Shown here in pieces: positions 414-56,210 of a DNA stretch of 64,000 nucleotides. A program made the translations under genes and the position numbers. Position 1 is the first letter of the stretch. Every line of letters begins with the position of its first letter. The notes beneath the pieces were generated by a model. That model was not told the origin of the DNA, did not search any database, and worked only from the letters and a program-made list of their open reading frames with translations. Source of the stretch: Marsupella aquatica (taxonomy: Eukaryota > Plantae > Marchantiophyta); NCBI GenBank assembly GCA_973895155.1, contig OZ316893.1:10421660-10485659 (forward strand). The letters are read 5' to 3'.

Positions 414-570
414 CTGGGGTGGCCGAGAGCGTTGTTAGATCCGTAAGGACACGGTTTTAGTAGCCATTTGTTGGCACATTCCTTGGTTCTGTGGCACTTT
501 GTCTCGCAGGTTGGGGTTGAAGTGGACTGATTTTGTGGTATGTTCTCAGGTTTGAAGATCAGGCAAAAAC

Positions 571-3500
571 ATGACAATGTCGTAGGAAGAGCTGGTGGAT
601 GACATCTTTTCGCGCCATCCTTTGACGGACTTCCACAACTCATCCTGGACGATTTCCTTAGGGATGGAAACATGGAAGAAGCCCTTCCTAATGCTGTGTG
701 TATTTGAGGGGCTTCCATCGGGGGCATTAGGGTGGGTAAATTACGGCCGCATCGATGTATTTCGACGGGGCGACGAAGTTGTGAACATGTTGATCACAAC
801 GAAGGAAACATCAACTTTGATTGTCGTGGATGTGGAGAGGTTTTCTGGAACGGCTGCCACCTGCTATCTCGATGAGGACATCGATAGCATCATTGAGACT
901 GTCAAGTCTCTTTCGAGTGAGGAACGTTACCACGACGTCGTGGGAAAGATTTCCGGTTTTGTGTTTGAATTTCACGCTAGCACTTTAAAGAGTGCAATCC
1001 GAAAATCAAGAGAGATTCTCCGGAAAAGGTCGGCAGAGAAGGGAGTAAGTCGTCCACCCAAATCTGGGGCTTCCGGTGTTCCTTCTGGATCGAGGCCTAG
1101 CATTTTACCCGATGATATTTTGACCGTGGTAGCGCCTACAACCTCCCGGGAAGCAGCAGCATCTGGAGGGGGATCTCAAGTTGGCAGATCATCCCAGGGA
1201 ACGGCTTTGACTGGTGGGTCGGCACAAGGTACGACTGGAACTCGCATTTCTTCAAAGAAGCGACCTGCTATGACTCCTGAGCCTACCGAGCCCAGTGCTA
1301 CAAAGTCAAAAAAGAAGACTTTGGAGAAAATTCCAACGCATTTGGAGCAAAAGGCTCAATCAATGTCAATGGATGCACGGGTATTGTACCAGGAGGAGAT
1401 TCTGGGAAGATGTGGTGTTCAAGAGGAGACCGTGACCGTTGACATTGGTCAACTTTACCCTCCAGTGAGAGAGAAGGCTGTGGGCTTGCCCATTTACCAG
1501 GTCCGACACATCCAACCATATTTCTTGACCCAATTGACCTTGCGGATGAAGACTGTAGGTGCCAGTCCACTTGCAGCTCCGTTTGTCCTCTTGGTGGATC
1601 CGAAGGAGTGTGCTACTAGGCAAGACTTTGATTTTTCAAGGAAAGCTGATTACCATTATTATGTGATTGGGGGCAACCATTCAGCCTGTGCCAAAGCAGA
1701 CCTTGCTCTTCAGTTCCCTAACAACAAGGCATTTCGGAGAGTGCAATCTTGGATATTTGCGGGATTGAGTGTGCAAGAGGCAAGAAACCTTGCGTGGAGT
1801 CACAATATTGATTCTGAATTTCGACAACAGATGACGACAATCCAGAGAGTAAATTATATTCACATGAGATTTGTTGAGAATGGATTGTCGTCCAACCAGG
1901 ATTTCAAGAAAGAGTGTGCTACTGAAATCAATCTCAAGGATTGGGGTGTACGAAAGGATGCTGAGGTTCTTAATGCCAATGATAACCTATTTCAGTTGGC
2001 ATTCCGACAAGATCCTGTGTGGTCATTTGTGAGGCAGATTTGTGACAAGTGGGAGATGTGTGAGATCAAAGGTCAAAAAGGAGACAAAGGCAAGAAGAAA
2101 GTCTCTAAGTCTGGAGATGCCAAATTGCCTTATGAGGACATGAAATTAACAGAGTGGAGACACATGCAGGCCTTGAAAGATCCTGATATGATTTGCCCAG
2201 TGTTACAAGAGTTCTTACTAAAGAACTCTCTTTACAGGAAATGGGTCACGAATTTACTCGACACAAATTTCAGATGCAGGTGCAGAAGGCCTTCCTCACG
2301 TGTCTACACGAGGAGAGTTGGTCAGGTTGTAAAACCAAGTACCCTGAGCATTGCACAGACAATGTGCTTAAGAATTTTGTACCTGTTTTCCAGACATGGG
2401 TAAGATTCTGTCACCTTTCTTCGAATGATTGTTTGAATTCATTTAATATTTGGAATCCTTGTTTCTAATTCTACAGTTCCTTTTTGTAGAAAGATACCAC
2501 CTCCCGGAAAAAGAAGGGAGATGAGGAAGGCAAAGATCTCAAGTCATTCCCGGACAAATTCAATGCGCATATTGTGCAAGCCCAAAATTGGCTATGCATG
2601 AAGACTTCTAGTCGGCAAACCCAAGAGGGGGAACTTCATCCAAATTCGTTTGAGCATCCAGAGTTTGGTGATGTGCACTATGATATTTTTACTCATGATG
2701 CTCAGCGATTACATGAGGTGGTTCCGGGTCGGGCTTACACATTAGCTTTAGTGGATATTCCCTACGGGTTTGCATTGCCTGGATGTCTTCATGAAGACAC
2801 TATTGGATGGGGAACTGAGGAGATCACAAAAATGGTCCAATCGTTCAAGGTGGCTACTACTGCAAAGTTGTGGCGTATTATCATTCACCACAGCCTTGAC
2901 CAATATGAGGCCATCAAGACCATTTTGAAAGCGGAGTGTAATGGAGGGTTCCAGAATTGTGTGTGGTAAGAAATATTTGTTTTTGAAAAAAACAACTATT
3001 AGTTATTCATGATTTCATGAACCATGTTTCTCAGTTTAAATAACTCCTTGACTTTTTGTGACTTTTCAGGGTTAAGGATAATGTGAAGAATGCTGGTGGA
3101 CCAAGATTGAACAGCAACTTTGAGTGCTTTACAATTGGCTTTCACAGCCAGGATGGTAAACGGTCATTGGAGCACTTCAATTTTGACACAAATGAATCAA
3201 GGAACAATGTGGTTGTATGCGCAGCTGTGACTAAGAAGCTGAAACACAACGGGGATAACAAGGCAGTGAATGTTTATCAGAAACCACGTGCATTGTTAGA
3301 TTGGGAAGTGAGTCATTTTAGTCAGGTTGGAGACTGGGTTTTGGATATTTGTTCAGGATCAGGGACTGGGACAACCTCCTCCTTGGCCATGGGGAGACAT
3401 TGCATTGCCATTGAGATTGACGAGCGACAGAGCAGTGTGTTGAAAGGGAGGATTCTTAACCTTGCAGATAACATTGAAGAGGAAGACGGACAGGGGGAGA

Positions 3501-3631
3501 TGGATGAGGAGAGTGAGGAAGACATTCCTCAGGCCGGAGAGGATAGCGTGGTTGACGATGCCACAATTGTTCCAGAATTGACGACAAGGACTTCTGGAAC
3601 CGAGGAAGGGGAAGCGGTCCCTTTGGATTAG
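571..3631 (+). pseudogene. ParB/Sulfiredoxin-like domain fused to a beta-class N6-adenine/N4-cytosine DNA methyltransferase; exons 571-2399, 2490-2965, 3070-3631
   Basis: ParB-like: VDIGQLYP..YQVR..PFVLLV..YYVIGGNHSACA..LSVQEARNLAWSHN (about 1435-1860). MTase: LALVDIPYG (motif IV, 2754-2765), spliced CVWVK, VYQKPRALL, GDWVLDICSGSGT (motif I, 3344-3367), GRHCIAIEID. GT-AG introns 2400-2489 (phase 0) and 2966-3069 (phase 2) join the ORFs in frame. Lesions: TAG at 583-585 after ATG 571, and a 1-bp frameshift near 2206. Confidence 0.85.
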
Positions 3632-3968
3632 ACTAGATAAATAGAGGGACTCGTAGCATTTGAAACCACTTGGGCTTAAGTTGGGTTATATTTTGTAAAA
3701 CTTTGAGTTTGACTTAAACTCTGATCGATGAGTTTGATTTTGATCACTTTTATAAAGTGCATATTTCAAGGTTTATACAATTGTGAGAATATCATATAAG
3801 ATATGCTTAGATTTTGGTGGTAAAATTCTCTTGAGTCTAGTTTGGAAAATACATACCATTTTTTGGTGGTTTTTTGGTATACACTTTTTAATATCATGAA
3901 GATTTTGAAAAGAGAAATAAGGCTTTGGACTCATCCCTTAAGGCTTCTTGTTTTTGGGTTTGTTGCAG

Positions 3969-5917
3969 GGTTTGGGTTTGTTTCAGGGTTACAAACTCAA
4001 GGGTATAAGGCATGCTCCACTTGTGGTCCAAGCCTTGAAGATATGGCCAAGTACTCAAGATGGCTTCGCAAGATAATCTACCTTGGGCATACCAAGTTTC
4101 TTCCACTTGGACATGAGATGAGGTCTGACCCCCTTCTATTTTCAGACTTTGACATGATCAATGGTGATGAGCGTGACATACCTGAGCATACATCCTTTGC
4201 ACATTGGAAATCCATAGCTGATAGGGTGGCAGACCCTAACGACCCCATGACATTTGATGGAAGTGGGTTGACGAGGTGGAGTATACTAGCCACATTGCCG
4301 TATTGGCCAGAGTTGAAGATTCATCATTTGTTAGACCCCATGCATATAGAGGGAAACATTGGGAAGGCTTTGATCAAGCATTTTTATGGAGAAAAGGACC
4401 ATAATTTTAGGGAGGCATGCCAGGATCTAGAACAACATCCAGATGTATGGATAACAGTTGATGCATCAACAGGGATGGAACACCGTCCTTCATCTCCTTG
4501 GGTTTTGAGTGTTGGTGAAAGAAGAGAGTTTCGACAACGCATAGGTCAGATGCGATTTCCTACAGGCTATGGTGCCAATCTCCGGAAAGCTTTTGGGATG
4601 GAGGACAGTCATAAGTGGCCAATGTATTTGAAGACACATGACTATCACCGTTTACTACAACATATACTTCCTATGACAATCATAGGCTTGGGCAGTGAAG
4701 AAATGCAAGACGCCCTATGGTCATTGGGCACTTTGTTGAGATGGATATGCTCAAAGGAAATATATGAAGAAGAGATCCCACGGATGGAGGTATTGGCAGC
4801 AGAGGTAGTGTGCAAGTTAGAGAAGGCCCTCCCTCCTTCCTTCTTTGATTGTCAAGTACATTTAATTGTTCATCTTGTGAGGGAGGTTGCCATTGTTGGT
4901 CCAGTGCATTGTCGTTGGATGTATTGGTTGGAAAGGTATATGGCTGTGTTAAAGGCTTATGTACGGAATCATGCACGAGTGGAGGGGAGCATGGCAACAG
5001 GATACTTGGCAGCTGAGAGTATGTTCTATTGCAGCAACATCTTAGCTACCATTGATCCTAGTTGTCCATGCAGTTGGATGGAAGAGAGAGAAATGGAGGA
5101 GGATCGTTTAACAGGAGCCAAAAAAACACGCTTACTGACCGGAGTGGAGTTGACACAGATGACTACTTTCATGTTGAGTAATAGTACTGTGATGGAAGAA
5201 TGGAGAGAGTTTTATGAGGATGCAAAGAGGGAGAGTCATCGTCCAAGGATTTTTCCAAAGTTCCTTGAGTATATGAGGGAGAAAGTACTTCAGTTGGATG
5301 CTATGGTGGCCCAAGGTGAGAGTGTATCACATTTTCCAGATATGACTCCTGAGGTTCGAACAATTGTTCATGGCCCTTTGAGACTTGTTCAGACCAGAAC
5401 AGCAATGTGGACACAAGGGAGACATTTCAGCATTTCTGACCTTGATGAGAAGAGGGGTAGAACTTTTGACTGTGGAGTTCAAGGGCAGTTCATGCAGGAT
5501 TCACAAAGTAGCCGCCATGACACCAATGTCATCCGAGATGTGGTGCCTCACTATGGGAAGATAGAGGAGATCTTGATTGTATCCTATGATGCGGATACAA
5601 AATTTGAAGAGTATGTCTTCAAGTGTAAGTGGTTCAAAATTCACTTGGTTGGTGAGAATCGCACAGTACTTCTTGATGATTGTGGGTTTACTCGACTGAA
5701 GACATCAGCAACTAGCTTTCAACCATCTCATTGGCAAACATCTGAACCGTTTACATTCCCAAGTCACCTTGAGCAGTGTTTCTATATTCCGTACCCACCA
5801 GACCCAGAGGAGTGGTCAGTTGTTATACCGTATGTGCCACGATCTCGTTCCATTATCTCAGAAAAACCTGAAGTTATTATTGTGTCAAACGGAGGAGAGG
5901 ATGAGGACCAAGTTTGA
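3969..5917 (+). CDS. CACTA transposase (Tnp2/TnpD-like), 3' exon with DUF4218/DUF4216-type regions
   Basis: Acceptor TTGCAG ends at 3968. Motifs LDPMHIEGN, LKTHDYH, PPSFFDCQVHL, GPVHCRWMYWLERY, VEGSMA, FKCKWF. Collinear with 54014-56210. The upstream transposase exon is not in the window. Confidence 0.9.
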
Positions 5918-6294
5918 TGCATCACTAGTAGTAAAATTTGTTGTGAGCGTATAATTGTGATTATATTAACTATCATGGTTTTATTTATATTTACCTATTT
6001 ATTTTCTTCTTTTGTCTTACAAACACTTGGACTTTGAAATTTTATTTTACTGCTATACATGCAACCCTAGCCACTAGAAAAGTTCTCCTCATGCATGCCA
6101 CCTTTTTTAAATCCCTAGCTTATAACCTAAACACATGCATTCTCCATCTTCTAAAGTTTTCTCTAAAAAATTTCCATTCTGAAAACTTTGCAAACAACTC
6201 TCTTTGTGAAACATTTTTTGAACCAGACAGGAAGGAATTTCTGAACCTCTTGTGAATCCAATTCCATCGGTACTTGTGATACAAATACGTTCTC

Positions 6295-6671
6295 AAAATT
6301 GCGACCAAATTGGCTTCGGTACTTTGCAACCCACCGTTCTTCACAACAATTTCCGAACATAATAGGTTCACAAACCATTTGTGATAGTATTAGTCTCGCT
6401 AAATTATGAACCAAAATGTATCCGAATACGGTCGCGATGGTCGCGGACTCACAAAGTCATTGCGAGACAACTAGTATCTAAACGTGTTGCGAAGTCAATA
6501 ACATCAAAACTTAATTGCGATGTATGTAGCTTCGCAACGTGAATGTGCGATGGTAAGAGCATGGGATATTGTGATGCGTGTTGCATCACAAAATATCTGA
6601 AGGTTCTAACATCGCAAGGCCTTTTTGACTTCAAAAAACACCTTCGCAAAAGGGGCCGATATGTAGTAGTG
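6295..6671. repeat. CACTA-1 right subterminal repeats and TIR
   Basis: Repeated TTGCGA/TCGCAA motifs (about 6300, 6460, 6488, 6531, 6643) ending in GTAGTAGTG. Confidence 0.8.
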
Positions 6672-7797
6672 TAATTTGGATGAGGCATTGGGATTTGTCA
6701 CTGAGTACATGGTTGACTGTCACGCTACTCGTAGACGTGTTTGGGATTCTGAAGAGGAGGAAGGTGTCAAAGGGGTGAAGCTAGAAGGAGCTGCTGTAAA
6801 ACTGATGCTAAGTTTGGAGGATCGTAATGCAGCTCATACATACTTTCTTCAAAATCACACTATGGTTCAACCATGGCTCAGGTGTGAAAAATCTACTTTG
6901 AGAAGCATTAAAGTAAATGTATTGAGGCTATCCTGACATTGTGCTAGTGGTCCTTTGCCCATTCAACTACTAATTAAGACATGACTGGTTGGTTTAATGT
7001 GTAGGGCATATGAAATAGCAAAGGAGGAGCGGGATCGAAGCTTGATTCATGTTCGCCCGCAGATTGGTGGGAATCGTAGACGAGTTCATTCACATCCACC
7101 CGGGCTGGCTGAGTTACCTCCTTTTATGGACTGGTTCAAGGATCAAATTAGGCTCCATGAGTTTAATGACCCCACACAAAAGTTGTTGTTAAAGACAATT
7201 TCATTTCCACCAAGTTGTACCACATTGTCATACAATGCTATGAAGGCATATGGAAATCACTTTAGAACAATGCATTGTCAGGATCCAAAAGGTAACTGGC
7301 GAGAGATGCAATACCTAAGGGATTGCGACAGTCAAGGTTACAGCACATTTGATAGCGGAATAGCTACTACTTTCCATGAGGAAAGAGTTAACCAGTCCGG
7401 GGCCTGTCTTGCCCGAACGACTTATGTTGGAGTCTTAACTCAGATTTTGAAGCTTGATTATGGTCCCTTACCAGAACCTGCTCTAATCTTGAAGGCTAAG
7501 TGGGTTCGGTCTGAGTGGGAGCCAGAGAGCCGAAACCCATCCATGAAACATGATGAGTCTGGTTTGTGGGTAGCCAACTTCCACCGGCCGTATCCATCAC
7601 AGGAGAAACTTGACTATGTCATGCCTAGTCAGATAGAGCAGGTCTTTTTTCATCCAAATGAGGCTAGGGTAGGTTGGAGGTATGTCCTTCACAAGGAAGG
7701 AAGGTCTAGGAGGGTTGCTACAGAGGTGAATGATCTTGAATTTAATGACATAGTTGTGATGCCTAGACAGGAATCACTCGGCCGGTTAAGTGGGTAA
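6672..7797 (+). pseudogene. 3' remnant of a different, older CACTA transposase, interrupted by CACTA-1
   Basis: Begins mid-motif (NLDEALGFVTEYM) directly after the CACTA-1 TIR. In-frame intron 6882-7004. Downstream AYGNHF, DSGI, YVGVLTQILKLDY, LKAKWV, PSQIEQVFF, GWRYVL are DUF4216-type motifs. Confidence 0.8.
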
Positions 7798-7869
7798 AGC
7801 AGGAAGGCACCCTAGGAACACCTTAGTATAGGGACAAAACAAGGAAAATATAAACAATTAGGGGCAACC

Positions 7870-10800
7870 ATGGAACCCGGGCCGAGGCCGGAGGTAAGGC
7901 TAAGGGTGAAAACCCGATTAGGGTTAGGGCACGTTAAGCGTCGGTGGCTAGGAAGGATCAACGGGAAGAAGGACCGGCAGAGGAGAGGGGTAAGGAGCGC
8001 TTGCAGGAGATGGTGGCTCATTTGCGAGCACGAACTAGGCAGACGACTACGGGAGGCCAACTACTGTCAGCTGCTTAGGCAAGCACTCGGGGAGAGAGTA
8101 GATACCGACGATCGACCTAAGGAGGGTATGAGCAACGTAAATCAAGCAACACATTTCTGGGGATGCCTGTTCGAACGGGCAACTGAGTACATCAAGACTT
8201 ACGAGGACGAGGAGTCAGAAAGGGCAGCTCAAGAACAGCAGGAGCTCGCTCGATTGTGGGAGCTGCAGAAGACGGCTTTCTTAGGAGGCGAACTCATCAA
8301 GGACGAGTTCCTATGGACGCCTACTTCCAATCAACTCGACGATCTTCTGTTTTGCAAAGACAGCGTCGTCGGCATCCGAGAGGCCATCAAGAACTGCAAT
8401 GACATACACTGGGAATTAAAGGGTAGCACGGAAAGGTGGACCCAGGCAACGGTGCTAGGAGAAACCTCCACGGCAGCAGAGATGAAGAGGAAGGGAGCCG
8501 TCAACGATGAAGCCACCCCGGCAAAAAGAACGAGGTCGGCGGCACCAAAGAAGCCAGCCGAGCAGCAGAGCAGGAGGCAGGGAGAAGCCGAAGAGGAGGA
8601 GGTCGATCCCATCAAGGCCATTCCAACCAGGGATGACACCTGGAAGGGCTGGGCGGCAACCCTACCGGTGGAGGTGCAACTACATTTTGCACGGGAGGAG
8701 GATGCATGCTTTACGGCCATGCAGACCAAGAAGTACCAAGGCTTCATGGCCGGATCCGGCTTGGAGGCCTTTGTAAGATTACCATGGCTGAAGCCGGAGG
8801 TACCGGAGTCAGACCTATTAGAATTCGTGGGGTCATGGGAACCCGAGACCAATTGCACGAGGATATATGGGAAGGATTTCTATCTTACTTCCAAGGTAAT
8901 TGCCGAAGTGTTTGGCCTGCCGATAGGCAATAAGACCAAAGTTGATACCAGGAAGACCTTGCCTGACAAGGAGTTCCGGTCGTTCCCCGGCCATCAACGA
9001 AGAATGGCTTCTTCCGGAACACCTGCACCAACCCGCACATAGGAGAGATGATCGACTTCTTGCGGGTGACCATGCATTGTAACTTGCCGAGGGCAGAGAT
9101 CGGCAAGGCACAGGTCTATCTGGCAGAAAGGCCAGACCCAAGCCGGGACTACAACGGGTACCTCCTCAACCAATTGAAGAAGATCTTAAAGGAGGAGCAG
9201 CAGGTAATCGGCATGGGGAGCGTGTCGCGGCTTGGCTATCACATGCCGCTGTTGTGCCGGTATGCCAGAGGTCAGACTTTTGCCCCGGTACTTCCCCTGC
9301 AGGTAAGGGCACCCGAGGAAGCTCCAACGCCGAGGCCGTTGGCTGAGAAGCCTCAACCACCTGTTAGTCCTACGATCGAGCAGGTGTTTAGGCCCAGGAA
9401 GGAAGACTTGCCGATGCAGCAACCAGGCATGCAGAGTCTGCTGAAACTATTGGAGAAAGAAAAGAAATCGGCATCGGCAACAACAATGGCAACGGCAACA
9501 ATGCAGGACACTACTACAGAGGTAGGCCTACACCGGCTCACAAGAGAAAACCCCTTTGCTGGAGACAAGGAGAGAATCAGGCCGGAATCCAAGCCAGGTG
9601 TTCGAATGTACGTGGGAACCTCAAGCTCCGAATCTGAGGCAGAATTGCCTGAAGCTCCTACCGACGAAGAGGAGAGGGAGAAGCCGGACGTCCAAGAGGT
9701 AGAGGAGGTAGTGGAGGACTGCAACCATGATAATTCCGGCTATGGGTCGGACCATCACGTTCCAGGAGTAAGGACCTGTGGCCGGTTTGTCCCCACACTT
9801 CCAAGGGTAGTGCGAGGGGACCCCAACCAGCAGAGTAGCCCTGAGTCTCCCCCACCAGATGTTGCTCCCCCGAGCTTCGACGGCATAAAACAGACGGTGC
9901 AGGAATTTCAGGAGCGAATCAAGCAGGAGGAAGAGGCCGCCCTGGCTAAGGAAAAGGATTTACCAGGAGGAGATTGGCCGGAGGACATCAGGCGGCTAGC
10001 CGAAAAAGGAAGCAAACCTCTAGCCACGATTGAAGAGATCCGCAGGACGGCTTGGGAGCAGAGGCCACGATGGGCGATGCCGATCACTTCTACTTACTCC
10101 ACCTACGCTAAGAATAGAGCCATGGAGTATGGTGAGATGTGTGGGGAACTTGCGCTCGGCATCTTTGGAGAGGAGTTGGAGGTAGGACCCCTTTTCCATA
10201 GGGAGCAGTTGGAGAAGCACCAATTAGAAGAAGCGGTGGCTTTAGAGAGAAGCAAGAAGGACGAGGTCATTCGGCGGCTTAGGAGGATGGAAGCCGAGAT
10301 TGAAGATCTAAGGGCGGCCAAGAAAGCCCAAGATGAACTGCGGATTAAACGACATGAGCTGAACATCATGCAGGGGCAGTTGGACACCGCGCAGGCTGAT
10401 AATCAGAATATCAAGGATAAATTGACTCAGACGCAGGAAGAGTTGGCCGACACGATCAAAGAGAGGGAGAAGTGGAAGCAAGAGCTGAAGAATACAGAGG
10501 AGGCCCACATAACAGCCAACAGCCGGGCCATGGCGGAGACCCAAAGAAAGGAATGGGCGTTGAAAGGGGAGCTCGAGAAAATCCGCGGAGCCCTTGAGCA
10601 GAAGGAGGTCGAGTTAGGGAAATCCTATCAAGGGATTATGGCGCTGCAGCAGGAGCTTGCGTCCCTGACGGCCAGCTTCAAGGCCGACCTAAGGGAGAAG
10701 GACGAGATGCTCGAACAGACTTACGCCAAGATGAACCAGATGGAGTCTGTCATCATTGCAGAGCTCGACAAGGAGCTAAGAGCAACCCGGGAGGAGAGGG

Positions 10801-11492
10801 CTACCTTGAAGAAGGAATTGGAGGAAGCCCACAGGGAGCAGGAGGAGGCCAAAAACGAGCTGGAGGGGGCACCTAAGGACCTGGATGAAACCCAAGAGGA
10901 GTTGGAGGAAATCACGAGGAAGATGGAGAACCTACAGCGGCGGGCCGACAACCAAACAGAGCGGCTGAAGAAACAAGCCGCAGTATTTAAATGCTTAGCT
11001 GCAGCAGGTCCATCTCCCGTTGGGACAAACCAGTTACCAGGGGTGGTAATTGCCGAAGGACAAGCCGCGTCAACTGCACCAGTGCCGGAAGTAAGTGGGA
11101 AGGGGAAGGGACCAGCTGCCGAGCCACCAACGAAGAAGAAGCGGAAACCTTCAGGGTCAAGGAGTAATACGACTTCACAGGCCGTGGTGATCAAGGAGGT
11201 AGACCTAGCACCGACCCCAGACAGGGTCACGGCTAAGGATCCAACTACCCTAGGGGAAGGGGAGGCCGAAGCCGAGGGAGTGGCTGAAGCCGAAGCCGTG
11301 GGAGTGGCTGAGGCCGAAGCCGTGGGCATTGCCGAGGCCGGTGTCGAGGCTGAAGCCGAAGGTGGACCCAGTCAGGCTGATGGAGAGTTGACTCGGTCAA
11401 GGGCAGGTAATATGTCAGTAGGCGGGCCAACGGCAGTGGCTGAGGAGGAAGTGTTGGGGGCGTCCATTGAGGATCCACCACCGGTGTCGTGA
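7870..11492 (+). pseudogene. Large retroelement-like accessory ORF (plant-transposon/mobile-domain-like N-terminal part plus long coiled coil), frameshifted near 8975
   Basis: ORFs 7870-9042 and 9048-11492 join through one frameshift. LLEFVGSW..IYGKDFYLTSKVIAEVFGLP resembles plant transposon ORF/PMD-like segments. E/K/Q-rich heptad region at about 10200-10980. GC- and CpG-rich relative to its flanks. Confidence 0.5.
11262..11360 (+). repeat. In-frame 24-bp tandem repeat, about 4 copies (EAEAxGVA)
   Basis: GAGGCCGAAGCCGAGGGAGTGGCT-like units. Confidence 0.8.
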
Positions 11493-12696
11493 CGGTGCAA
11501 GGGCGCCGTTCCTTTTAGGGAGGGCGGACGTGGAGGGAGGAGGCGTGAGTGGGCAGGGCGGGCGCGGATCTCCACGTTTAGGATTAGGATCAGAACCAGG
11601 AGCGGCCCTGACACTTAGCTTAGTGGGATTGCGGTTCCACTGGTAGGAGCAACACTTGTGCTCCTGCCTTACTATACATAGGTAGATTCGGGCAAGTAGA
11701 TTACTGTCAGGTAGATTAGGCTTACGATGCAAAGAATGGCGGATCCACTACCAGGATAAGTACCTGGGCAGCGGGGAGCTCAGGGCCTCTTCTTTAGCAA
11801 GTTTTTAGTTTGCACCAGCCGGGCTGGGATCAAGTAGTACGAGAAGCTCTCGGTTAGTCATACAGTGACCCTTGTGTATATTCATGTTTCCTCATGCCTA
11901 AGAGCTGAATAGAGTTGGCCTCACGGCTTAGTTCGCAGAACTTGTGTATGAGATGTACTGTTTGTATGGCAAGTGCATGGTATGACTCAGTCAGAATGAG
12001 TCATTTTGCTATTTGTGTGTCGCATTAACTTGTGTGAAGAGTGCCCACATCAACAGAAGGAAGGAAAGTAAGCAGGGGAGTGAGAGTTGGATGTGTCGAG
12101 CTGAGAGAGATCTTAGCGGCTTAACCAAGCCTATTGGGGATCATTCCGGCGGCGGAATCCAAACATACCTAACAAGAAGACAGGGGAAGACAGGGGAAGG
12201 CCTATATTAGGCCGGCTACGTATCTCATGACCCGATGAAGGATCTGTCCAGTATATGTGTGTAAAATGTTAATAGTAGTAGTAGAAGGTTAGCAGCGTCC
12301 CATGCCGCTAAGCCACGGAAACGGCCTCGCCAAGCACGAAACCTGCGGGAATCGGCTTGAGCTGGGGGGTTTCTTGGGTTTAGGGAGCCATGGGACGCAC
12401 CACAATCTTGGCCAAACACATTCTTCCTGGCGATAGTAACTGCAAGCAAGGGGGAGACAGGGAGAACAAGGAGAATAGGGAGGCAACTCACAATGGAGCT
12501 AGGTAGCTCATGATCAAGCAACTTGCAATTGCAGCAATAGTAGTCTTAGTAGCAAGCGATTGAGCTCCAGGAAATGACAAACCCGCAGCTGAGTCCTCAA
12601 TTGACAAAATGTTCGCCACTCGACCCTCCTTCCAACTGCAACCGCCAGATAGTAGGAATAAGATAGAGAGGTTGCAGCCTTCTCAGTGATCCAATA

Positions 12697-12985
12697 GCAC
12701 CTCTCTTACCACCTCCGCTCTTAGCACATCCGCTCGCACCTCCGCTCTCAACACCTCCTTTGGCACCTGAGCCGCTCTCAGCACATCCGCTCGCACCTCC
12801 GCTCTCAGCACCTCCTTTGGCACCTGAGCCGCTCTCAGCACCTCCGCTCGCACCTCCGCTTGCACCACCTCCTTTGGCACCTGAGCCGCTCTCAGCACCT
12901 CCGCTCGCACCTCCGCTCGCACCTCCGCTCGCACCACCTCCTTTGGCACCTGAGCCGCTCTCAGCACCTCTGCTCGCACCGCCGC
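12697..12985. repeat. Composite GC-rich minisatellite built from 12-bp and longer codon-multiple units
   Basis: GCACCTCCGCTC and CCTCCTTTGGCACCTGAGCCGCTCTCA units repeated; ORFs stay open across it on both strands. Confidence 0.9.
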
Positions 12986-15594: not shown

Positions 15595-15609
15595 GAATCT
15601 GTTGAGCAT

Positions 15610-17966: not shown

Positions 17967-18021
17967 AAAAAACCCATCACAAAAAAACCTCGTCATCTCC
18001 CAAGCATGCTCTGATACCACT

Positions 18022-42780: not shown

Positions 42781-42786
42781 TTTATA
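42781..42786 (-). promoter_or_regulatory. Candidate TATA box of the GRAS gene
   Basis: TATAAA on the minus strand about 590 bp upstream of the ATG, followed by a CT-rich leader. Confidence 0.4.
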
Positions 42787-45700: not shown

Positions 45701-48128
45701 TCTACACAAGCTCAAATGCATTACGTCAATTTCATTAAGCTTCCTAGTTTTCACCACCTGCAATAATTGCATTGCAGTGAATGTTGGAAAAGCTATATTG
45801 TCAGGCCCATAGTTTTTTAGCATGGCCCAACTCCATGAGTTTATGCTATCCTTGCATCTATGTCTCTGTACTTGTGAAAGATAATTCATTTTCTCTTTGC
45901 AACACAATTCCCTTGTTGGGAATATTTCTGGGAATCCATTATTAAGTCATCAAATTAGTAACCTCTCACTTCAGTTCCTCATGCAGTTCTCATGTTGATC
46001 TCAAATCGGTGCCCCCTATGATCTTAATTTATGGATTGATTTCTTTAAGGCAATCAAAAGTTAGACATTCAATCAACATCATCATTTCAAAAATAGAGAT
46101 TTTCAGTTTATATAATTCTATGTGGCTTCCAAAGTGGGGAAACCAAGCAGGTGGGGAAGAGGGTGTCACTGTGTATCAGGTTGTCAATTACAAAAGACCA
46201 TGTCCAGTCCAACGATGAATTTTCATATGATTTTAATCTCGGGGTCCTTTCTTTTCTCCCAACCCATCGTGCACAAATCAGTTAGGAAATGTTTTTGAAT
46301 TGGGCGGAAGACTTTCAAATTTTAGCTGAAAGTTATGGGTGTTCTCATCCAATTTTGAGAATTATAAGAACTGTAGGGTGTTTAATACTAAATCTACAAA
46401 TATTTCTTAGAGTACTCCATAAAGTTTTGGTTCAAAAATATTTTCCTAAACTTTAGGTTCTTTATTACTTGAACGTGACATGGGACTCTATTGGAATGAG
46501 GCCCCCAAGATTTTAATTGACCAAAGGCTTATAAGTGTAGAATATAAAAGGTGTTGACAACACAAATATAGAGATATTTGTTTTGTATGCCTTTCAAAAG
46601 TAAACAGGTCATTTTCAAAAGAGGAATGTTTCTAAAACATTCCCTTCACAAAAGAAGTTATTTTAGGTAGGCCAAAGTTGCACACAATAACCAAAAAAAT
46701 ACACCAAGTGACCCCACTACCAAGACAGTGTGGACTACAAATCTCATGAAGCTCTTTATTTAGTTGATTTCAAGGTAGGGGATTGGACTTGAGTATATTT
46801 CAACATTTTACACTGGGGTAAGAGTTTTCCACCTAGAGTCCCTTCCACAAACCTAGATTTTGATAAAGAGAACCAAGAATATGGTGTGCAAGCAACTTTG
46901 CCTCTTCGGGTCATTTCCTTGGCTGCAGGGACCGGAAAAGAATCCATCAAACATTTTCCCGACCAGTCACAGTCAGAATCTTTATCCTCATTGTCAAGTA
47001 GTGCTGGTCGGGGAAATTTATTGAACGCCTTATACCTAGTTTGGAGCTTTCTGTAAGTAGGAACAATATCACTTTTTCCACATCTCCTCGTCACGTAAAA
47101 GAGCAATAGTTAAATGTTTTTTTCACTTTTCTAACAGTATTTGGGGTTTCGTCTTTGAGTCTGTTGAGATTATTTTCTAGCAGTCCTCATGGCTGACTAA
47201 CATTGCTTTTGAGTCTTGTGTGCTCATATGGGTCCTATGACACTCCTTTGAGTAATATCCGGCCTAACTGTGTTGCTCAAATGCTTTTGGGATGTCCAGG
47301 GAAAAAATTAGAAATTAGGCAGATAGAAGAACAGCATTGTCGTGGAATTGCCCTATCTTGTGCAGCAGTGGAATGCTGAAGTGGAAGCCTCCATTCATGA
47401 AAGAATGAGGCCTGAGTATTCCTTTGCATCAACGTAGAGTGCCACTACAACACTACCTACACCTTTTGCGAACTTGAAAGCATCGCAAACAACAAAGGAA
47501 ATCAAAAAACAAAACTCGTCTTTGCGAAGTATCGCGCATCGCAATAGAATCGCAAACTGCGAAGCCCAAAGGTTCGCATCTGGTCTTTCGCAAGACCTTC
47601 GCAACGCCTTCGCAACTTGCGACACTAATAGAATCGCAAAGGACTCACATTTAAGCGACTCCATGCGCGTCGCGAGAGGATTGCGATAATAATCAAGCAG
47701 TTAAATATTTGCAATCCCATGAGTTTGGTAATATATTTGCAATATTAAGTGAATGGTAGTTATGGCATGAAGATCGCTTCGCATTTTTGTGAACTTATGT
47801 GGTTTGCATAATATTTGCGATACCTTCAGTATGGTAAATATGCGATTTGGGTTGTTCGCATAGGTTTCGCAAGATGTCTTGAGGCTAGGGTTTAGATTTA
47901 GAGTTTTGAATTATGGTTGGGGTCTTGTTGTCCAACACGGAGAATGAGGTCTGAATCAAAATTTCTTTATAGAAAATTGATAGGTACACAAAAATTAGGG
48001 TTTCCTAAACCCTAAACCCTAGATGGGTGTCATATGACAAGCTAGGTCCCTATAAGACTACCCATGATATCAAAACTATATACTACACTAAGTAAATGGG
48101 CATCCCATAGGCACTACACCACCAAGCT

Positions 48129-50095
48129 CTAGAATGGGGTCCTCCTACTCCTTGTCGCCGGCCTCTTCCCCTTGTCCCTCTTGCGACGATCCGGACGTGG
48201 CACAGGAGGTGGTGCTGGCTGCTCCTCCACATCTGGTTCCTCCTCGTCCTCGTCCTCATCCTCTTCCTCCCCCTCCTGCTGGGAAACTCCTCCTACTGGT
48301 CCAGATCCACTACTCCCTCCTACCTTGGGCCCCTTTGTCGTGGTCCCCTCATTGTTCTCATCGGTGCTGCTGGTATCACTGGCATCCTCATCATCCTGTT
48401 TGCACAGCACAACGCCAAATTGGTTTAGGTTTACGGAATGAAAAGATAAGTGGATTGGGTGGGAAAAACTGAAGGGGATACATGCACTTACAGTCGCCAA
48501 CTCTGCGTCAACCAAGTCAAAGAGATGTTTGGCTCCATGCGCAGCTCCTATCTCCATCTCTTTTGCTGTTATCTTCCTGCGGTACCTCTTATACTACCAC
48601 AACCAAACATTCCAAAACCAAAATCGGTCGAGGTTAATATGCTATAAACCCAAGAAAAATGCATGGAGGTGCTAATAGGGTGCCCCCTAGAACACAAAAC
48701 TGGGCTCAATAACCCTTAGCGGTATTTTTTAAACATAATACACACTTGCGAAACGCCCCACTTCGCAAATTCAAATAAATTGGCAGATTGCGAAGTAGTT
48801 TGCGAAGCGGGTTAGTTCGCAATAGCTTCGCATGTACAACTTTAAAAAATGCCATGATAGACTTTGCGAAACATTTGCGAAGCAACCCGCATCGCAAAAG
48901 CTTCGTAAACTCTGTTTTTAAAAAATTCTGAGAAATCTCTAAGGCACGCAATGTGTCAGGGTGACCTAAAGTACAAGGCAGGCCATAAGAAAGAAACAAG
49001 AGGTATGCACGGGGGGCATTGCAGGTTTGGATAGCAATTGAAAGCAAGGAAACAGAAGCAGGGGAGGAGAGGGCCCACTCACAAAGTGTGCTTTGAGGCC
49101 GGGAAGTCCACCTTGGCCCATCTTGTGCGTGGTCTTGGGCCGTTTGCTGACTCGCTCAGCTGCAAGGATGAATTTTTGGGGTGGTGCCCCACTTCATCCA
49201 CAATGTGCTGCATGTGAGACACCTTCTCAGCCATTGCCTTGAGGTCTCGGTCGGACTTCCCGGCCTTCTGTGCCTTGGCTTCCATCTCCTTCCAGAAGAG
49301 AAGGTTCCTGACAGCTCTCATCTGCACCTCCACTTTGTAAAAGGCATTGCACACGTCCTCAGTGAATTGCAGTGGCCTCCTCACGTTTCTGTACTCCTCC
49401 AAGTTTGCCAGGTAGGCCCTTACCTTCTTCCTATCATGGTACCGTGCTTGAGACATTGAATTGGAAATTCTATCTGCAAGCCACTGTTCATCAATCTCTG
49501 CTCCATTTCGAAATGAATCTTTGATTTGACTCATTACTTTCTTCTGGTCTGCCTTGCTGAGTTTCCCCCACTCAACTCCTCGTGCAAAATTGGAGCGCAC
49601 CATAAGCCTGATAGTGCTCTTTGCCCCGGTGTAGGCCAGTTCAGTAGGAATGCCTTCGATCAAGGCAATCATAGGCAGCTTCTTCCTCTCTTCCTCCTTC
49701 TTTCGCTGCTCCTCCCGCTGTGCTCTTATCTCATCTCGTTCCTCTCTCCTCCTCTTCTTTTCTAGGGCAGCAGGTGAGACTACTCCTGCCTTGGCCCTCT
49801 CCTCCTTCTTACGCTTCTTCTCTCTTGCCTTATGTTGAGCTGCACTCCTTTGCTCCTCCTCCCTTGCAATGTTCCCTGCATCTACTCCCGTTTGCAAGGC
49901 TTGCCCTAGGATTGCACTCAAAGAAGCAATCCCTGCTGGTGTAGTCAAATCTAAGTGGCTCAACTGTGCTGCATTGAGGTGCTCAGCCATCAAATCGGTC
50001 CATCGATTCCTCTCCTGCTCCCCATTGCCTTCATTCCCATTGCCACTGTCACTCACCCCTGCCCCATCACCTCCATTTGCTCCATTGGAATCCAT
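48129..50095 (-). pseudogene. TnpA/Ptta-En/Spm-like second gene of CACTA-2; exons 50095-49083, 48593-48492, 48395-48129
   Basis: WGKLSKADQKKVMSQIKDSF and RPLQFTEDV..AF; after a frameshift near 49180, THKMGQGG (H-x-x-G-x-G-type motif of Ptta/En/Spm proteins). Two GT-AG phase-0 introns; acidic/basic tail. Confidence 0.65.
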
Positions 50096-51395
50096 AGCTA
50101 AGCCACCCCCCGAGCGCGCGCGAGCTCCCTTCTCCCTCCCTACGCTTGAAATTTGTCAAATGCCGCTGAGTACGCCGCGGCCGAGTGCAAAAGTACAAGC
50201 GGGAAAGACTTGCGAAGCAACCCGTTTCGCAAGTTGCGATCCTTCTAGTTTCGCATGTAGTTTCTCAATTTTGCGAAACCATTGCGACATGAAAGGCTTC
50301 GCAACACCTTCGCTCTCTCGCAGAAATGCTCTCGGGCTCTGTTTTTCTGAAGGTCATGCGAAAGCATCAGCTTCGCAAAACTCAATTCTAATTTGTGACG
50401 GTATTTGCGAAGGAAGCGGCTTCGCAAGACATTGGCAACTCGTCCTGGGGGGGATGTTGGTTTCATTTGAAAGGGTTTTTTTCAAAGGTGAAGTGGACCC
50501 CTCTATACTCATATTTGGAATGCTTTTTGGCCATGTTTTGGGTGTTAGATAATAGTTGAAGGCGGGTTTGAAGGGTTAGGCAAATTTCAGGTTAATGGGT
50601 TATGTATGGTGTTGGTTTAGGCTAAGGTTTGGGTTTACATTAGTTTAGAAGAAATAATAAAGGTGTGGGATTTGGTTTACAAGAAATAAGTAAGGTTTGG
50701 GTTTAGGGTTTTAGGGTTTGGGGTTTTTAAATAGAAAGGTCTCTAGGGTTGAAGAAAGGTTTGGGTTTGTGTGTAAGTCAGATTTAGGTTTAATAGGTAG
50801 GATGCGGTTTGGGGTTGAAGGTTTGGATAAGACAAAGCAAGGTTTCATGAGATTTATATTGCAGCCTTTTGGGTTTAAGAGAGGTTCATTGGGTTTATGA
50901 ATCAAAAAGGGATTGGCATGGGTTTTGCTAACAAAGGAGGGGAATATATGATAGCTTGCAGGGTGCGGCACTTTTTGATGATTTGATACTAATGCATATG
51001 CATTGTGAGAGCTCGGGCATCTGAAAGGTAAACATTGCATGATCGGCTCAAGTGTTCCTTTCATGTACTTAATAGTTTTGGTTGCCACTATGTATAAAGG
51101 GGACATGTATATAGGGTTTTTTGTTCTTGTCTGGTCCAGATTATTGTGCTTACATATACATGGAATGGTTGCAGCTTTTCCCTCATACTTTCAGGTTGGG
51201 TTCATTAATTATCTTAGAGCCACAAGACCATTTGGCACTGCTGAGCCCGGGTCTCATAAAGGTACCTTTTTTATTGCTATGGTCATTTTGGTTTGGGTTT
51301 CTTGTTATCATTATTTGGGAACTTTGATTTATATCATTTTGTGGTATGTTTTGGTCATAACATGCCCATTTTAATTATATCTTGTTACAGGGGAT

Positions 51396-52542
51396 ATGTC
51401 TTCATCTTCTGAAATCTCCACCACAGACTCGTCCTCCTCTGATGAAGATACACCACCTCAACATCACACGACCGCACCTCCTCCTCGCGGTCCACCCGGT
51501 CAACTTTGTGAATGTTCCAGATGTGTGGGTCAGGTTTCCCAAAAATCTTACATATGTGCCCAACATATTGAGAGATATGGGCGTTGTGGACGTCATACGG
51601 CAGGGGCTTCTTCATCTCATATGGTAAGTGTTATGCCTTAGTTTTCCTACCCTATTCCCATTACTCAATGGTTGAAGGTTTTTAATTTCACACCTACTTT
51701 TGTTTGTTTTGGTTTCGGTGGAATAGGTATCCAATAGGCCTAGACCTGCGGCACAAGCACCCTATGTCCCATCACAAGGTGTTCTAGATGCTATAGGCAA
51801 TGCATTCTCAAAAGCCTTGGGTCTAGCGGCAAGGCCCACCAGTCCTAGGGAAGTTGGGGTTGAGGCTATTGTCCCAAGAGGGAGAAAGCGTTCCAAGAGG
51901 CGGGCCCGAGGGGATACTGATTTGTACAAGGCAGTGGTTACGGGTAGGTGGGGTGATTGTGAGTTCACTGGCAGATGTGTTCCTATCATCAAGGACTGGG
52001 ATCCTGAGACTCTTGGTTTGCCACAACAGCTTTCCTACGGTGCGGAGGTAGAGGTTTGGGGTAGACGTTGGGTTATCAAACCTTCCACACTTGGGGATAG
52101 ACATGGCTATGGAGTTTTTGCCTGTGAGGACATCATTGTGGACGCCGAGAGTGGTAGAGGTGGACGCGGCCGAGAGGGGCCTACTTTGTTTCCTTATGGT
52201 GGACCCATCTACAAGAGAAGACATTGGAACATGATCCTTGCACAACACCCTGAGTGGAAGACTTATGCATTGGACATGGATACTTTTGATGGAAACACTA
52301 GAAGGTATAGTGAGCAGCGTGTCATAGATGGGGACCCCATACGGACTGGGAATATTGCTGGTTTCATAAACAGTACCGTGGGGACTCGCCCTAAGCGTAG
52401 GCAAAATTGTGAGTGGGTTTTCATTGAGGGTCCTCCGCCAGCACCTTATGGCCAGACATATCATCATGACCATTGCCTAGTTTTAGCAACGAGGACCATT
52501 AACTCAGGGGATGAGTTATTTACTCACTATGAGTGGGATTAG
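51396..52542 (+). CDS. Transposase-associated Zn-finger plus SET-domain protein (exons 51396-51623 and 51727-52542; 347 aa)
   Basis: Exon 1 CECSRC..ICAQHIERYG is transposase-associated-domain-like. Phase-0 GT-AG intron. Exon 2 has SET motifs IKPSTL..GYGVFACEDI, PYGG, IDG..GNIAGFINS..NC, LVLATRTINSGDELFTHY. No stops. Confidence 0.85.
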
Positions 52543-52718
52543 GGTTAAGTTAAGGGTCATAGGTGGTATGTTGCATATCAAAGGACACTACATATGGCCT
52601 TTGGCCACATTTTGTATTTGCACCACAACCAATATTATTTCATTTTTGCACACCCCTAGCCCATTTTTGTGTGTGTTCTCTTTGCAATATAACTTTCAAT
52701 TGTTTGCTTTGTTTTTAG

Positions 52719-55700
52719 AATGTGCGACCTTCTCCAAATATGTTACCACGGAGATTGAGAGCAACATATTGAGAAATGGGTATGCCAGAAGAAGGACATG
52801 GATCAGAGTCACACTCCTCATCAAGTGCTAGTGGAAGTAGTAACCCTGATGAAGAGGTACCTCGGACGGATGAACAAGTAACTGATGACCAGGATAGAGC
52901 CATGGATGACTTCATGGTTGATTGGTTTGGTGCCGACAACCCTGGTGATGACCTTCCCAATGAAGGGCAGGTGCCCCCCAATGATCCACGCCCAAGACAT
53001 ACCCCTGAGGGACAACGCCAATGGGAAGAAGCAGAGGAACATGCCCGAACACCTATCTATGAGGGTGCTCGTTTGAGTCGTCTTTCAGCCATCTTGGGGT
53101 TGATGAACCTACAAGCCAAACACAAGGCAAGCAATGCCTTGTTATCTGATATGTTTGCACTTTGCCATGACCTTATGTTACCCACTGAGAATGTGTTGCC
53201 AGCAACTTGGAAGGAGGCAAAGAGTGTTCTTTCATCTATTGGTGTGGAATATCATATTGTTCATGCATGTGTGAATGATTGCATGTTATTTCATGGGGCC
53301 AATGCAAACATGACACAATGTACAACATGTGATGAGCCTCGCTATGACCCCAACATGCTAACAAAGAAGGTGCCAAGGAAGGCTGTTCGTTGGTTTCCCA
53401 TCATTCCTCGGTTGTTGCACATGTATCGGTGTTCTGACTTGGCAGAGTTGATGGTATGGCATAAGACTCATCGATCAGAGTCTGGTGTCATGCGGTTGCC
53501 AGTTGACTCCCCTGCTCACAAACATATTGAGGCAACATGGCCAGACTTTGCACGTGATCCTCGCCATGTGAGGCTAGGATTGGCATCTGATGGAGTTAGC
53601 CCTCATTCACTTGGAGGAAAGGGGCAACCTACATCAGTTTGGCCTGTGGTTGTCATGAATTATAACCTCCCACCATGGCTATCCATGAAGAAGGGGTTCT
53701 TTTTATTGTCTTTGATTATCCCAGGTCCAAAAAAGGTGAAGAACTTTGACACTTACTTGGCACTATTGGTTGGAGAACTTCAAAAATTATGGAATGGAGT
53801 GTGGGCATATGATGGCAGGAAAATTACAAGAGATTTTCCACGTGTCTTTCAATTGAGAGGGATCATTTGTTGGACAATGCATGACTATCCTCACTGGTAA
53901 GATGACTTCCATGCCATTTGCAACCCTTCAATAATGTGTAGTTCCTATTGTTGTTTCCCATGTGACAACCCTAACATAAAGTTTGCATGGTTTGATTTCT
54001 TCTATGTAAGCAGGGTTTGGTTTTGTCTCTGGATTGCAAACTCAGGGGTACAAAGCTTGCTCTACTTGTGGCCCAAGCTTAGAGGACATGGCCACATATT
54101 GTTCATGGATTAGAAAGATTGTTTATATTGGGCATACAAAGTTTCTTCCCATGGGGCATGAGATGAGGTTTGACCCACTTCTATTCTCCTCCTTTGACAT
54201 GCCATTTGGTGATGAGCGTGAAATTCCTGATGCAACAAGTTTTGCACATTGGAAGTCACTAGCTGATAGGGTGGCAGACCCAAATGATTCCTTCACCTTT
54301 GATAGGACAGGTTTGACCAGGTGGAGTATACTAGCCACTTTGCCCTATTGGTCTGAGTTGAAGATCCGCCATCTTTTAGACCCCATGCACATAGAGGGAA
54401 ATGTGGGGAAGGCTTTGATAAAGCATTTTTATGGGGAGAAGGACACTAATTTTAGGGAGGCATGCGAGGAGATGAAAATGCATCCAGATGTTTGGGTGAC
54501 AACTGATCCTATCACAGGTGTGGAGAATCGTCCTTATGCTCCTTGGGTGTTGAGTGTTGGCCAAAGACGTGAATTTTGGAACCGTATAGGAGAGATGCGG
54601 TTTCCTACAGGCTATGGTGCCAACCTTCGAAAAGCTTTTGGGATGGAGGACAATCACAAGTGGCCACGATATCTGAAGACACATGACTATCATCGCCTAT
54701 TGCAGCATATATTGCCAGTGGCAATTATTGGTATAGGGAGTGAAGAAGTGCAAGATGCCATCTGGTCATTGGGTCGTTTGTTGAGATGGATATGCTCAAA
54801 GGAGATATATGTAGAAGAGATCCCTGGGATGGAAGTATTGGCAGCTGAGGTGGTATGCAAGTTGAAGAAAGCCCTTCCTCCTTCCTTCTTTGATTGTCAG
54901 GTTCATTTACTTGTGCATCTTGTGCGGGAGGTTGCCATTGCAGGTCCAGTGCATTGTAGATGGATGTATTGGCTTGAGCGTTACATGGCGGTGTTGAAGG
55001 CTTATGTACGTAACCGTGCACGGGTGGAGGGAAGCATAGCTACAGGATACTTGGCAGCAGAGAGTATGTTTTATTATAGTAACATCTTGGCCACCATTGA
55101 TCCTACTTGTCCACGTACTTGGATGGAGGAAAGAGAAGAGGAGGAGGACCGTTTAACAGGTGCCACAAAAACACGCATGTTGACATCAACAGAGTGGTCA
55201 CAGTTGACAACATTTATGTTGAGTAATAGTAATATCATGGAGAAATGGAGAGAGTTTTATGAGAATGCCAAGAGATCAAGTCAAAGAGCAAGAATTTTTC
55301 CTAAGATGCATGAGTATATGAAGCAAAAGTTGCTTGAGTTGGATGACATGGTGACACAAGGAGGAGATGTGTCCCACTTTCCTACCATCACAGATGACAT
55401 TCGGACCATTGTTCATGGCCCTTTGAGAGTGGTGACATCCAAGACGGCTATGTGGACACAAGGGAGACACTTCAGATCCACTAGTACCTAACCTTTCTTC
55501 CTCTATTAATTCATGTAGATCTTATTTTGATTAGTTATTTCTATTGTTTAAAAACTTTCTATTATCATTAATGACATCCATAACTGTAATGTTGGCTTCT
55601 ATATTTATGCCATAGGCCATGTGGGTTTTGGCTATTTAGGGATGGGTGTCATATTTTGATGATTATTACATTAATGGTATCTTTTGTGTAATAAAAATTT

Positions 55701-56210
55701 GTGGGTTTTGTTAATTTCAGGGTTTCTTCCCTTGATGAGAAGAGGGGTCGTACTTTTGATTGTGGAGTTCAAGGGGAATTTTCTCAAGACTCCAGAAGCA
55801 GCCGCCATGACAGGAACATTGTTAGAGATGTTGTGCCACACTATGGGAAGATAGAGGAGATCTTGGTGGTATCATATGACAACCATTCAAAGTTTGAGGA
55901 ATATGTCTTCAAGTGCAAGTGGTTCAAAGTGAACCTTGTTGGTCAAAATTGCACTGTACTTCAAGATGAGAGTGGGTTTACACGGTTGAAGACAAGTGCC
56001 ACTAGTGTTCAAGCATCTCATTGGCAAACGTCAGAACCATTTGCTTTCCCATCACACTTGGAGCAATGTTTCTACATTCCATACCCCTTAGACACCGAGT
56101 GGTCAATTGTCATCACCTATGTGCCACGTTCTCGTTCCATTGTTTCTGAGAAGCCAGATGTTATTGTATCAGACCTAGATGACCTTGAGGCCGATGAGGA
56201 CCAAGTGTGA
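52719..56210 (+). pseudogene. CACTA Tnp2/TnpD transposase; exons 52719-53896, 54014-55475, 55721-56210 (first exon probably 51396-51623)
   Basis: HACVNDCMLF, CTTCDEPRY, FPIIPRL, RHVRLGLASDG, YNLPPW, MHDYP, LDPMHIEGN, RWMYWLERY, FKCKWF. Lesions: TGA at 52770, 4-bp insertion at 53892-53895, AT instead of GT donor at 55476. Confidence 0.92.

Follow-up and report, generated by a model that had tools for sequence, protein, structure and literature searches.

A SET-exon CACTA family and a separate multicopy ParB-methyltransferase element, probably nested in one CACTA copy, in the liverwort Marsupella aquatica

Two probable mobile systems in one genomic window

The 64,000-nucleotide stretch of contig OZ316893.1 of Marsupella aquatica (assembly GCA_973895155.1, positions 10,421,660 to 10,485,659 of the forward strand; hereafter the window, numbered from its first letter) carries two CACTA transposons, CACTA-1 and CACTA-2, a SET exon in the latter, and a gene predicted to encode a ParB-fold domain fused to an amino-methyltransferase. 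We regard it as probable that two unrelated mobile systems are present: the SET exon belongs to a CACTA family, and the ParB-methyltransferase gene to a separate multicopy element that likely inserted in intron 2 of CACTA-1. A sequence-only reading of the same DNA had described the range 571-56210 as one CACTA lineage with two epigenetic writers as cargo in its transposase introns; this description is unsupported, although its component parts exist, and about 40 kb of the range (6672-47442) is unrelated DNA. The observations behind our reading are the anatomy of the window, the conservation of both genes, the multicopy state and end (near 3952) of the ParB-methyltransferase unit, and conserved TCATG-N4-CATGA sites. 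The nearest named relatives of the SET and ParB-methyltransferase genes are found in a leafy liverwort and in peat mosses.

The ParB-methyltransferase unit ends near position 3952

The ParB-methyltransferase gene lies in the right part of a separate multicopy element (1-3952, + strand), whose left end is outside the window and whose right end falls 16 nt before the splice acceptor of CACTA-1. As the sequence-only reading had pointed out, the gene immediately precedes the exon that in CACTA-2 comes after intron 2. Contigs of three sequencing runs (X1, X2 and X3, which share 0.64-0.71 of sampled words) were compared around 3952. Contig depth, a rough proxy of copy number only, was 540-620 over the gene versus 17 on the single-copy flank in X1 and 1761 versus 41 in X3, and the depth of the unit was sustained to position 1. 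These values suggest roughly 30-40 copies of the unit, with the gene open in the copies represented by contigs.

A 103-nt contig of X1 (depth 568) is identical to 3850-3952 and ends there, and at least 13 contigs (2 from X1, 1 from X2 and 10 from X3) depart from the window at 3952-3957, with tails (median 102-255 nt) that are mutually unlike (agreement 0.46-0.68 in pools of several) and show no alignment with the transposase exon. On the CACTA side of the junction, a contig identical to 3953-4168 (depth 241) carries 91 different letters ahead of 3953; inspected by eye, these have short words in common with the 3′ region of CACTA-2 intron 2. A sister-family contig (depth 620, 14 differences in 204) carries 531 other letters before 3965. 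In X2, an identical contig starts exactly at 3953. The unit thus ends at about 3952 in unlike flanks, and CACTA contigs differ from it at that point: the methyltransferase gene is part of an independent repeat, and the CACTA also exists in copies without it. The ParB-methyltransferase gene is thus likely not CACTA cargo, as had been proposed, but a separate element in intron 2 of this CACTA copy. The related idea that intron positions serve as cargo slots rests on a single nested insertion, because the methyltransferase unit is an independent repeat. No convincing copy or inverted partner of the last 321 nt of the unit was found in the window or in the metagenome loci described below.

Structure of CACTA-1 and CACTA-2

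Downstream of the junction, a remnant of the 3′ end of CACTA-1 intron 2 with its acceptor AG (3953-3968, +) is followed by the open 3′ exon of the transposase (3969-5917, +), which matches Transposase_21 from model position 133, DUF4218 and DUF4216. The right subterminal region and terminal inverted repeat (TIR) occupy 6150-6671 (+) and end with GTAGTG, followed by TAA. The left TIR, exon 1 and exon 2 of CACTA-1 are absent from the window; the left part of the element lies outside it. CACTA-1 appears to have inserted into an older CACTA-type transposase gene, whose 3′ part follows on the right at 6672-7797 (+); the match is weak (21-24% identity to C-terminal segments of the two transposases, E 2e-6 to 6e-4), and the depth is that of single-copy DNA. 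This arrangement would amount to a triple nesting, with the methyltransferase element within CACTA-1 and CACTA-1 within the older gene.

CACTA-2 is a complete element of 9.7 kb (47443-57171, +) with CACTAC...GTAGTG ends; its terminal inverted repeats, CACTA...TAGTG, are at 47443 and 57171, and their outermost 9 nt are complementary. The flanks, TGC on the left and TGT on the right, agree at two of three positions as a putative target-site duplication. The motif TTCGCAA, counted on both strands, forms four clusters of 6, 7, 7 and 6 in CACTA-2, versus 2 occurrences in the 40 kb between the elements, and it is present three times in the right end of CACTA-1 and absent from 1-4000. Both elements have the Transposase_21, DUF4218 and DUF4216 domains and subterminal TTCGCAA repeats of the CACTA family, and both transposases contain the C(2)C and H(3-4)H motifs as defined in the accessible part of PMC12730594.

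The likeness between the two elements reported by the sequence-only reading was largely borne out. The transposases are collinear, with long identical stretches including both peptides quoted there, and are 80% identical in DNA and 81% and 78% identical in protein (dN/dS, the ratio of nonsynonymous to synonymous substitution rates, 0.145 and 0.166; dS about 0.9), and the TTCGCAA motif is common to both. The claim of similar TIRs holds for the right ends, 85% alike over 39 nt, and has no counterpart on the left, where CACTA-1 has no TIR in the window. The CACTA-2 transposase intron at 55476-55720 is absent from CACTA-1 (equivalent position 5428).

A divergent gene of CACTA-2 (48129-50155, −; open reading frames (ORFs) at 49079-50155 and 48129-48593) lies between TTCGCAA clusters. 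It generated no hit to any family in a Pfam scan and is a candidate for a TnpA-like end-binding protein. On the + strand, exon 1 (51396-51623, 76 codons) has a Ser-rich start, a Cys/His cluster and a phase-0 GT donor, and is followed by the SET exon (51727-52542), an open frame with a stop at its end, and by transposase exons 2-4 (52719-53896, 54014-about 55475 and 55721-56210). The exon phases were derived from coordinates. Both the SET exon (at 51727) and transposase exon 2 (at 52719) begin in phase 0 after an AG, in phase with the exon 1 donor, so that exon 1 can, on these coordinates, splice in phase to either. Exon 1 would then be the common start of the SET and transposase products. The CACTA-2 transposase has lesions: a stop at 52770-52772, an exon 2/3 junction that is out of phase, and no GT at the expected donor of exon 3.

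In maize En/Spm, one CACTA transcription unit yields TnpA and TnpD through alternative splicing, and the element ends carry subterminal repeats. CACTA-2 resembles it in the two products predicted from one unit and in the subterminal repeats, and differs from it in the further divergent gene between the motif clusters. We know of no SET product of maize En/Spm.

The SET exon is an old component of bryophyte CACTA elements

The SET exon scored 25.3 bits against the Pfam SET model (cut-off 22.4) and lies between exon 1 and exon 2, that is, in transposase intron 1, where the sequence-only reading had placed it. Among 1885 candidates, 42 SET relatives were identified, from Calypogeia fissa (73% identity), several Sphagnum species (56-83%) and Riccia sorocarpa (39%). 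Of the 360 members of one cluster of relatives, 15 were listed, several of them accessions of a single Sphagnum species. Exon 1 is 57-71% identical to the N-termini of 17 Sphagnum and Calypogeia gene models. In a Sphagnum jensenii model (P0042), exon 1 and SET are followed by a segment with 52% identity to the beginning of transposase exon 2; this model was the only one among 266 proteins compared that matched a transposase exon. As P0042 joins all three, the order exon 1, SET, transposase is common to different genera; since exon 1 and SET are kept together in Calypogeia and Sphagnum, and one Sphagnum model reaches into the transposase, the layout is old. On these comparisons, the SET exon is an old, conserved component of CACTA elements in bryophytes. 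The SET half of the earlier interpretation is upheld: the exon is conserved, multicopy in Sphagnum, located in intron 1 and linked to a transposase in another genus. The family of CACTA-1 probably has a SET exon too, since the Sphagnum element appears to be more distant from CACTA-2 than CACTA-1 is.

Within the 42 relatives, fragments included, the GxG motif is kept in 35, the Asn in 35 and the terminal ELxxxY in 32. A PDB sequence search with the SET protein returned no match.

The ParB-methyltransferase gene is conserved and under purifying selection

The gene has three coding exons across 571-3631 (+). The first (571-2399) encodes an N-terminal domain, a linker, a ParB/Srx-fold domain with a GGNHS motif, and a helical region. 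The second (2490-2965) contains the catalytic-type motif DIPY and is the same exon in metagenome loci L001 and L002 and in Calypogeia protein P0267. The last (3070-3631) contains the S-adenosylmethionine (SAM)-binding motif DxCxGSG and an acidic tail, and scored 37 bits against Pfam N6_N4_Mtase (cut-off 26.7). The window copy is interrupted by a stop codon (583-585) and a frameshift (near 2207); the stop is absent from the contigs of all four runs, and the frameshift from the high-depth contigs of three. A candidate intron at 2209-2272 was ruled out by relatives that read through it.

The N-terminal domain (586-1050) was modelled at a predicted local distance difference test score (pLDDT) of about 90, generated weak PH-like matches (Z 4.6 or less) and is conserved in bryophyte relatives. 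With a structure model of the first 541 residues, the top 10 Foldseek hits were all ParB/Noc (E 1.4e-4), and the modelled ParB domain superposed on PadC with Z 9.1 and a root-mean-square deviation of 3.0 over 96 residues. The ParB part had no sequence match in Pfam or PDB, its fold being assigned from the model alone. GGNHS was present in 30 of 53 motif matches among 163 proteins. In the methyltransferase part, DIPY precedes the SAM-binding motif, the order of the beta class (PF01555), and the part is a predicted beta-class amino-methyltransferase; a Calypogeia relative had CcrM as its top PDB sequence match (E 0.006). The TSPPY motif of N4-cytosine methyltransferases of the MpDN4MT1 type was not found, DIPY standing in its place.

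A profile search with the ParB-methyltransferase returned 579 proteins at E 0.001 or better, of which 150 were listed, and PF01555 was also passed by 7 of 35 scanned ParB matches. Fourteen of 20 name-checked relatives are from Chara braunii, Riccia sorocarpa, Adiantum nelumboides, Ginkgo biloba and Calypogeia fissa, and three weaker ones are from a hemichordate, a sea anemone and an amoeba. The occurrence of ParB-methyltransferase relatives in Chara, liverworts, a fern and Ginkgo, as judged from protein comparison, is new. The metagenome scan yielded three loci (L001-L003) from 163 pattern matches, none of which extends downstream of the gene, and the viral contig scan yielded none from 94 candidates. 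L001 and L002 share the exon layout of the window gene. Among 115 candidates for longer proteins containing the last methyltransferase exon there was one match and no fusion, which is weak evidence.

The dN/dS ratio was 0.04-0.16 in nine of ten comparisons, one being saturated, and the ratios are approximate because dS is near saturation. On this analysis the gene, including motif IV and the SAM-binding motif, is under purifying selection. If the cargo genes had been neutral one-off captures, the sequence-only reading would have been contradicted; the methyltransferase is not a neutral one-off, given these ratios and the open frames of other copies, yet it is not CACTA cargo either.

In L001, a divergent ORF (2-703, −) stands head to head with the ParB gene and has CATG-N4-CATG sites inside it. 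It had no Pfam match, and no transposase match was found in the 1.7 kb upstream of the gene; the ORF may represent either the beginning of a transposase gene of the carrier or another accessory gene. L002 (615-640) has a TAG two codons after the likely start, as does the window copy, and L001 has a TAG at 2851-2853.

A conserved palindrome upstream of the gene and in its last intron

Upstream of the gene, an 18-nt perfect palindrome with the core TCATG-N4-CATGA (site 1, 350-367; one match versus none in 100 shuffles) is a predicted binding site of the ParB domain. The core recurs at a second upstream site (392-405) and in the last intron (3007-3020), at the same place in L001 and L002, and it is also found upstream of the gene in both of these loci. 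It occurs three times in 1-3952, four times in L001 and three times in L002, each count exceeding those of all 100 shuffles, and is absent from L003 (1.2 kb, with little upstream sequence), from either CACTA and from 6672-47442. CATG pairs with spacers of 0-8 other than 4 number one in total across 1-3952, L001 and L002. The palindrome in the last intron keeps its place in the three loci despite divergence of the surrounding intron. A conserved TCATG-N4-CATGA palindrome upstream of the gene and in one intron, in three loci, is new here. The ParB-fold protein would bind this sequence, and the A or C of CATG would be the methylated base.

A further TCATG-N4-CATGA (57864-57877) and a CATG-N4-CATG (58174) lie to the right of CACTA-2, where no further likeness to the element was found.

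Other features of the window

The window is repeat-rich eukaryotic DNA. The sole clear host gene detected is an intact GRAS-family gene of 733 aa (40010-42211, −; Pfam E 5e-111). A very high-copy repeat at ~7800-13500, with a contig depth above 23,000 in X1 at 7673-8200, truncates the older CACTA-type gene; it contains ORFs at 7816-9042 and 8967-11492 (coiled coil, no family) and a Pro/Ala tandem array at 12695-12995. Copia fragments are present on both strands at 14900-19300, with a 56-nt inverted repeat (16798-16853 / 17967-18022). Right of CACTA-2 are tandem arrays (58889-59292 and 60102-60518, with units of ~55 nt and 18-19 nt) and, at the right end of the window (61775-63926), a Myb/NAM-associated-like gene tail-to-tail with a DDE_Tnp_4/Plant_tran fragment of PIF/Harbinger type.

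Proposed activities and alternative explanations

Under the mechanism that we propose, alternative splicing of one CACTA transcript would join exon 1 either to SET or to the transposase, and the target of the SET product would be a lysine, on chromatin or on a protein of the element, whose methylation favours the element. The ParB-fold domain of the nested element would recognize the palindromes in the element's own promoter and intron, with the methyltransferase placing N6-methyladenine (6mA), or less likely N4-methylcytosine (4mC), on or near them; 6mA is the likeliest mark because the motif is D-x-P-Y, not the TSPPY of 4mC enzymes. Such marking may result in autoregulation or in protection of element expression from silencing. 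We tentatively extend this to a hypothesis, somewhat less likely than not, in which a ParB-amino-methyltransferase family of mobile elements in land plants and Chara, both lacking the AMT1 6mA pathway, marks its own promoter and intron at TCATG-N4-CATGA with a bacterial-type mark (6mA or 4mC), one such element expanding now in this liverwort. The insertion of that element in a CACTA intron, next to a long-established SET enzyme of the CACTA, would be the first step in the transfer of such writers between transposon superfamilies.

Several points weigh against the reading of two mobile systems, one nested in the other. Among the contigs listed, none bridges the window junction 3952/3953. The window reaches neither the left end of the nested unit nor the left half of CACTA-1, and it shows no target-site duplication, left terminus or transposase of the unit. 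Depth is an imprecise guide to copy number, and the near-saturated dS makes the selection estimates coarse. GGNHS occupies what we take to be the place where CTP-binding ParBs (CTP, cytidine triphosphate) carry arginines. The structure model of the SET domain is poor (pLDDT 51); the listed fold matches are nearly all SET/PR domains, none of them significant singly (best E 0.12). The NHS motif is found in none of the 42 SET relatives, which lack the usual His and have INST or INSS instead.

The strongest alternative, which we hold to be somewhat unlikely, accepts this anatomy and differs on activity: the SET product would be a binder or a non-histone modifier, and/or the ParB-methyltransferase would transfer few or no methyl groups and serve as a site-specific repressor or an end-binding helper. 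The altered NHS in 42/42 relatives fits such a role, as do a motif IV of the form D-x-P-Y (DIPY, DFPY, DAPY) rather than the canonical DPPY/SPPY and the judgement, in the accessible part of PMC4738411, that DIRS methyltransferase domains are likely inactive. However, most SET relatives keep the GxG, Asn and ELxxxY motifs at the frequencies given above, and motif IV and the SAM-binding motif of the methyltransferase are under purifying selection.

Considerably less probable is that the junction arose by deletion, recombination or an assembly join that brought the end of a methyltransferase element to the right half of a CACTA, in which case exon 2 would not lie upstream. In its favour, the window lacks exons 1-2 and the left TIR of CACTA-1, and the junction is spanned by none of the listed contigs; against it, the junction falls exactly at the element end set by other copies, as transposition predicts, and the right end of CACTA-1 with its flank was matched over 1140 nt without a difference in X1.

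Very improbable is the model of the sequence-only reading, in which a CACTA subfamily holds the ParB-methyltransferase as a fixed passenger of intron 2, giving the lineage two intron-borne writers: the gene does stand directly before exon 3 with the acceptor intact, giant algal elements are reported, in the accessible parts of the sources, to move with nested or accessory genes, and X1 depth seems continuous from gene through transposase (about 550-740), a likeness from which a single unit was considered and then rejected on the contig ends at 3952, but similar depth here means two families, the flanks of the unit are unlike, CACTA contigs differ there, and no fused or adjacent transposase was found among the proteins and loci compared, L001 and L002 ending inside the gene.

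Comparison with known systems

Transposon-borne SET, ParB and amino-methylase genes are already known from algae and oomycetes, as the accessible parts of several reports show, and the belief of the sequence-only reading that no such system had been described was too strong. The PAG cassette of red-algal Plavaka elements (EnSpm/CACTA superfamily) combines, in one element, an N6-methylase+SET gene (PAG2) and a ParB+2-oxoglutarate oxygenase gene (PAG3), and inverted repeats next to the Plavaka ParB gene have been proposed as ParB sites (10.1101/2025.02.11.637652). As far as that text goes, the two cases are alike in an EnSpm-superfamily carrier and in a PF01555 methylase, SET and ParB as accessory functions, whereas in the present case SET forms an exon of a Transposase_21 CACTA and a second, separate element bears ParB and the methylase as one fused gene. 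An accessory protein of Ectocarpus Sola1-1_Ec32, of about 1000 aa, has a ParB-like domain and an N4C/N6A methyltransferase and was proposed to bind and modify its own element (PMC12477816). In the portion of the report available, it resembles the present protein in joining ParB and amino-methyltransferase, a comparison of domain architecture alone; it differs in its brown-algal host and Sola1 carrier, the present one being from a land plant with a candidate site conserved across loci. HarbingerS and MuDR families of Phytophthora carry SET genes (cited in PMC12730594, accessible part); they are likewise DNA transposons with a SET gene, but of other superfamilies and in other hosts.

Among bryophytes, MpDN4MT1a/b of Marchantia are host genes with TSPPY that make genome-wide 4mC in sperm, and the word ParB does not occur in the accessible text of that report (10.1101/2021.02.12.428880). 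Going by that text, they share with the present gene a beta-class, prokaryote-type amino-methyltransferase in a bryophyte, and differ from it in its DIPY motif, ParB fusion and multicopy mobile element. ParB-linked adenine methylases have been reported in chlorophytes and chytrids (PMC4738411), the accessible part of which does not mention CACTA. Our literature search found no SET-bearing CACTA and no land-plant ParB-methylase element; Repbase, subscription papers and preprint supplements, which were outside its coverage, may list land-plant cases.

Significance

Whether land plants have genuine, enzyme-made 6mA at all is disputed. According to the accessible parts of two reports, the AMT1 pathway has been lost in plants (PMC12695648) and methylase-bearing long terminal repeat (LTR) elements are absent from streptophytes (10.64898/2026.05.21.726589). 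The case also carries a caution, that a gene within a transposon intron may be a nested element. What the analysis leaves is a bryophyte CACTA with a long-standing SET exon and, independent of it, a young ParB-methylase element whose candidate site is conserved. With a young multicopy element, an intact amino-methyltransferase and a predicted site, the question of 6mA in land plants becomes addressable at named positions in existing long-read data.

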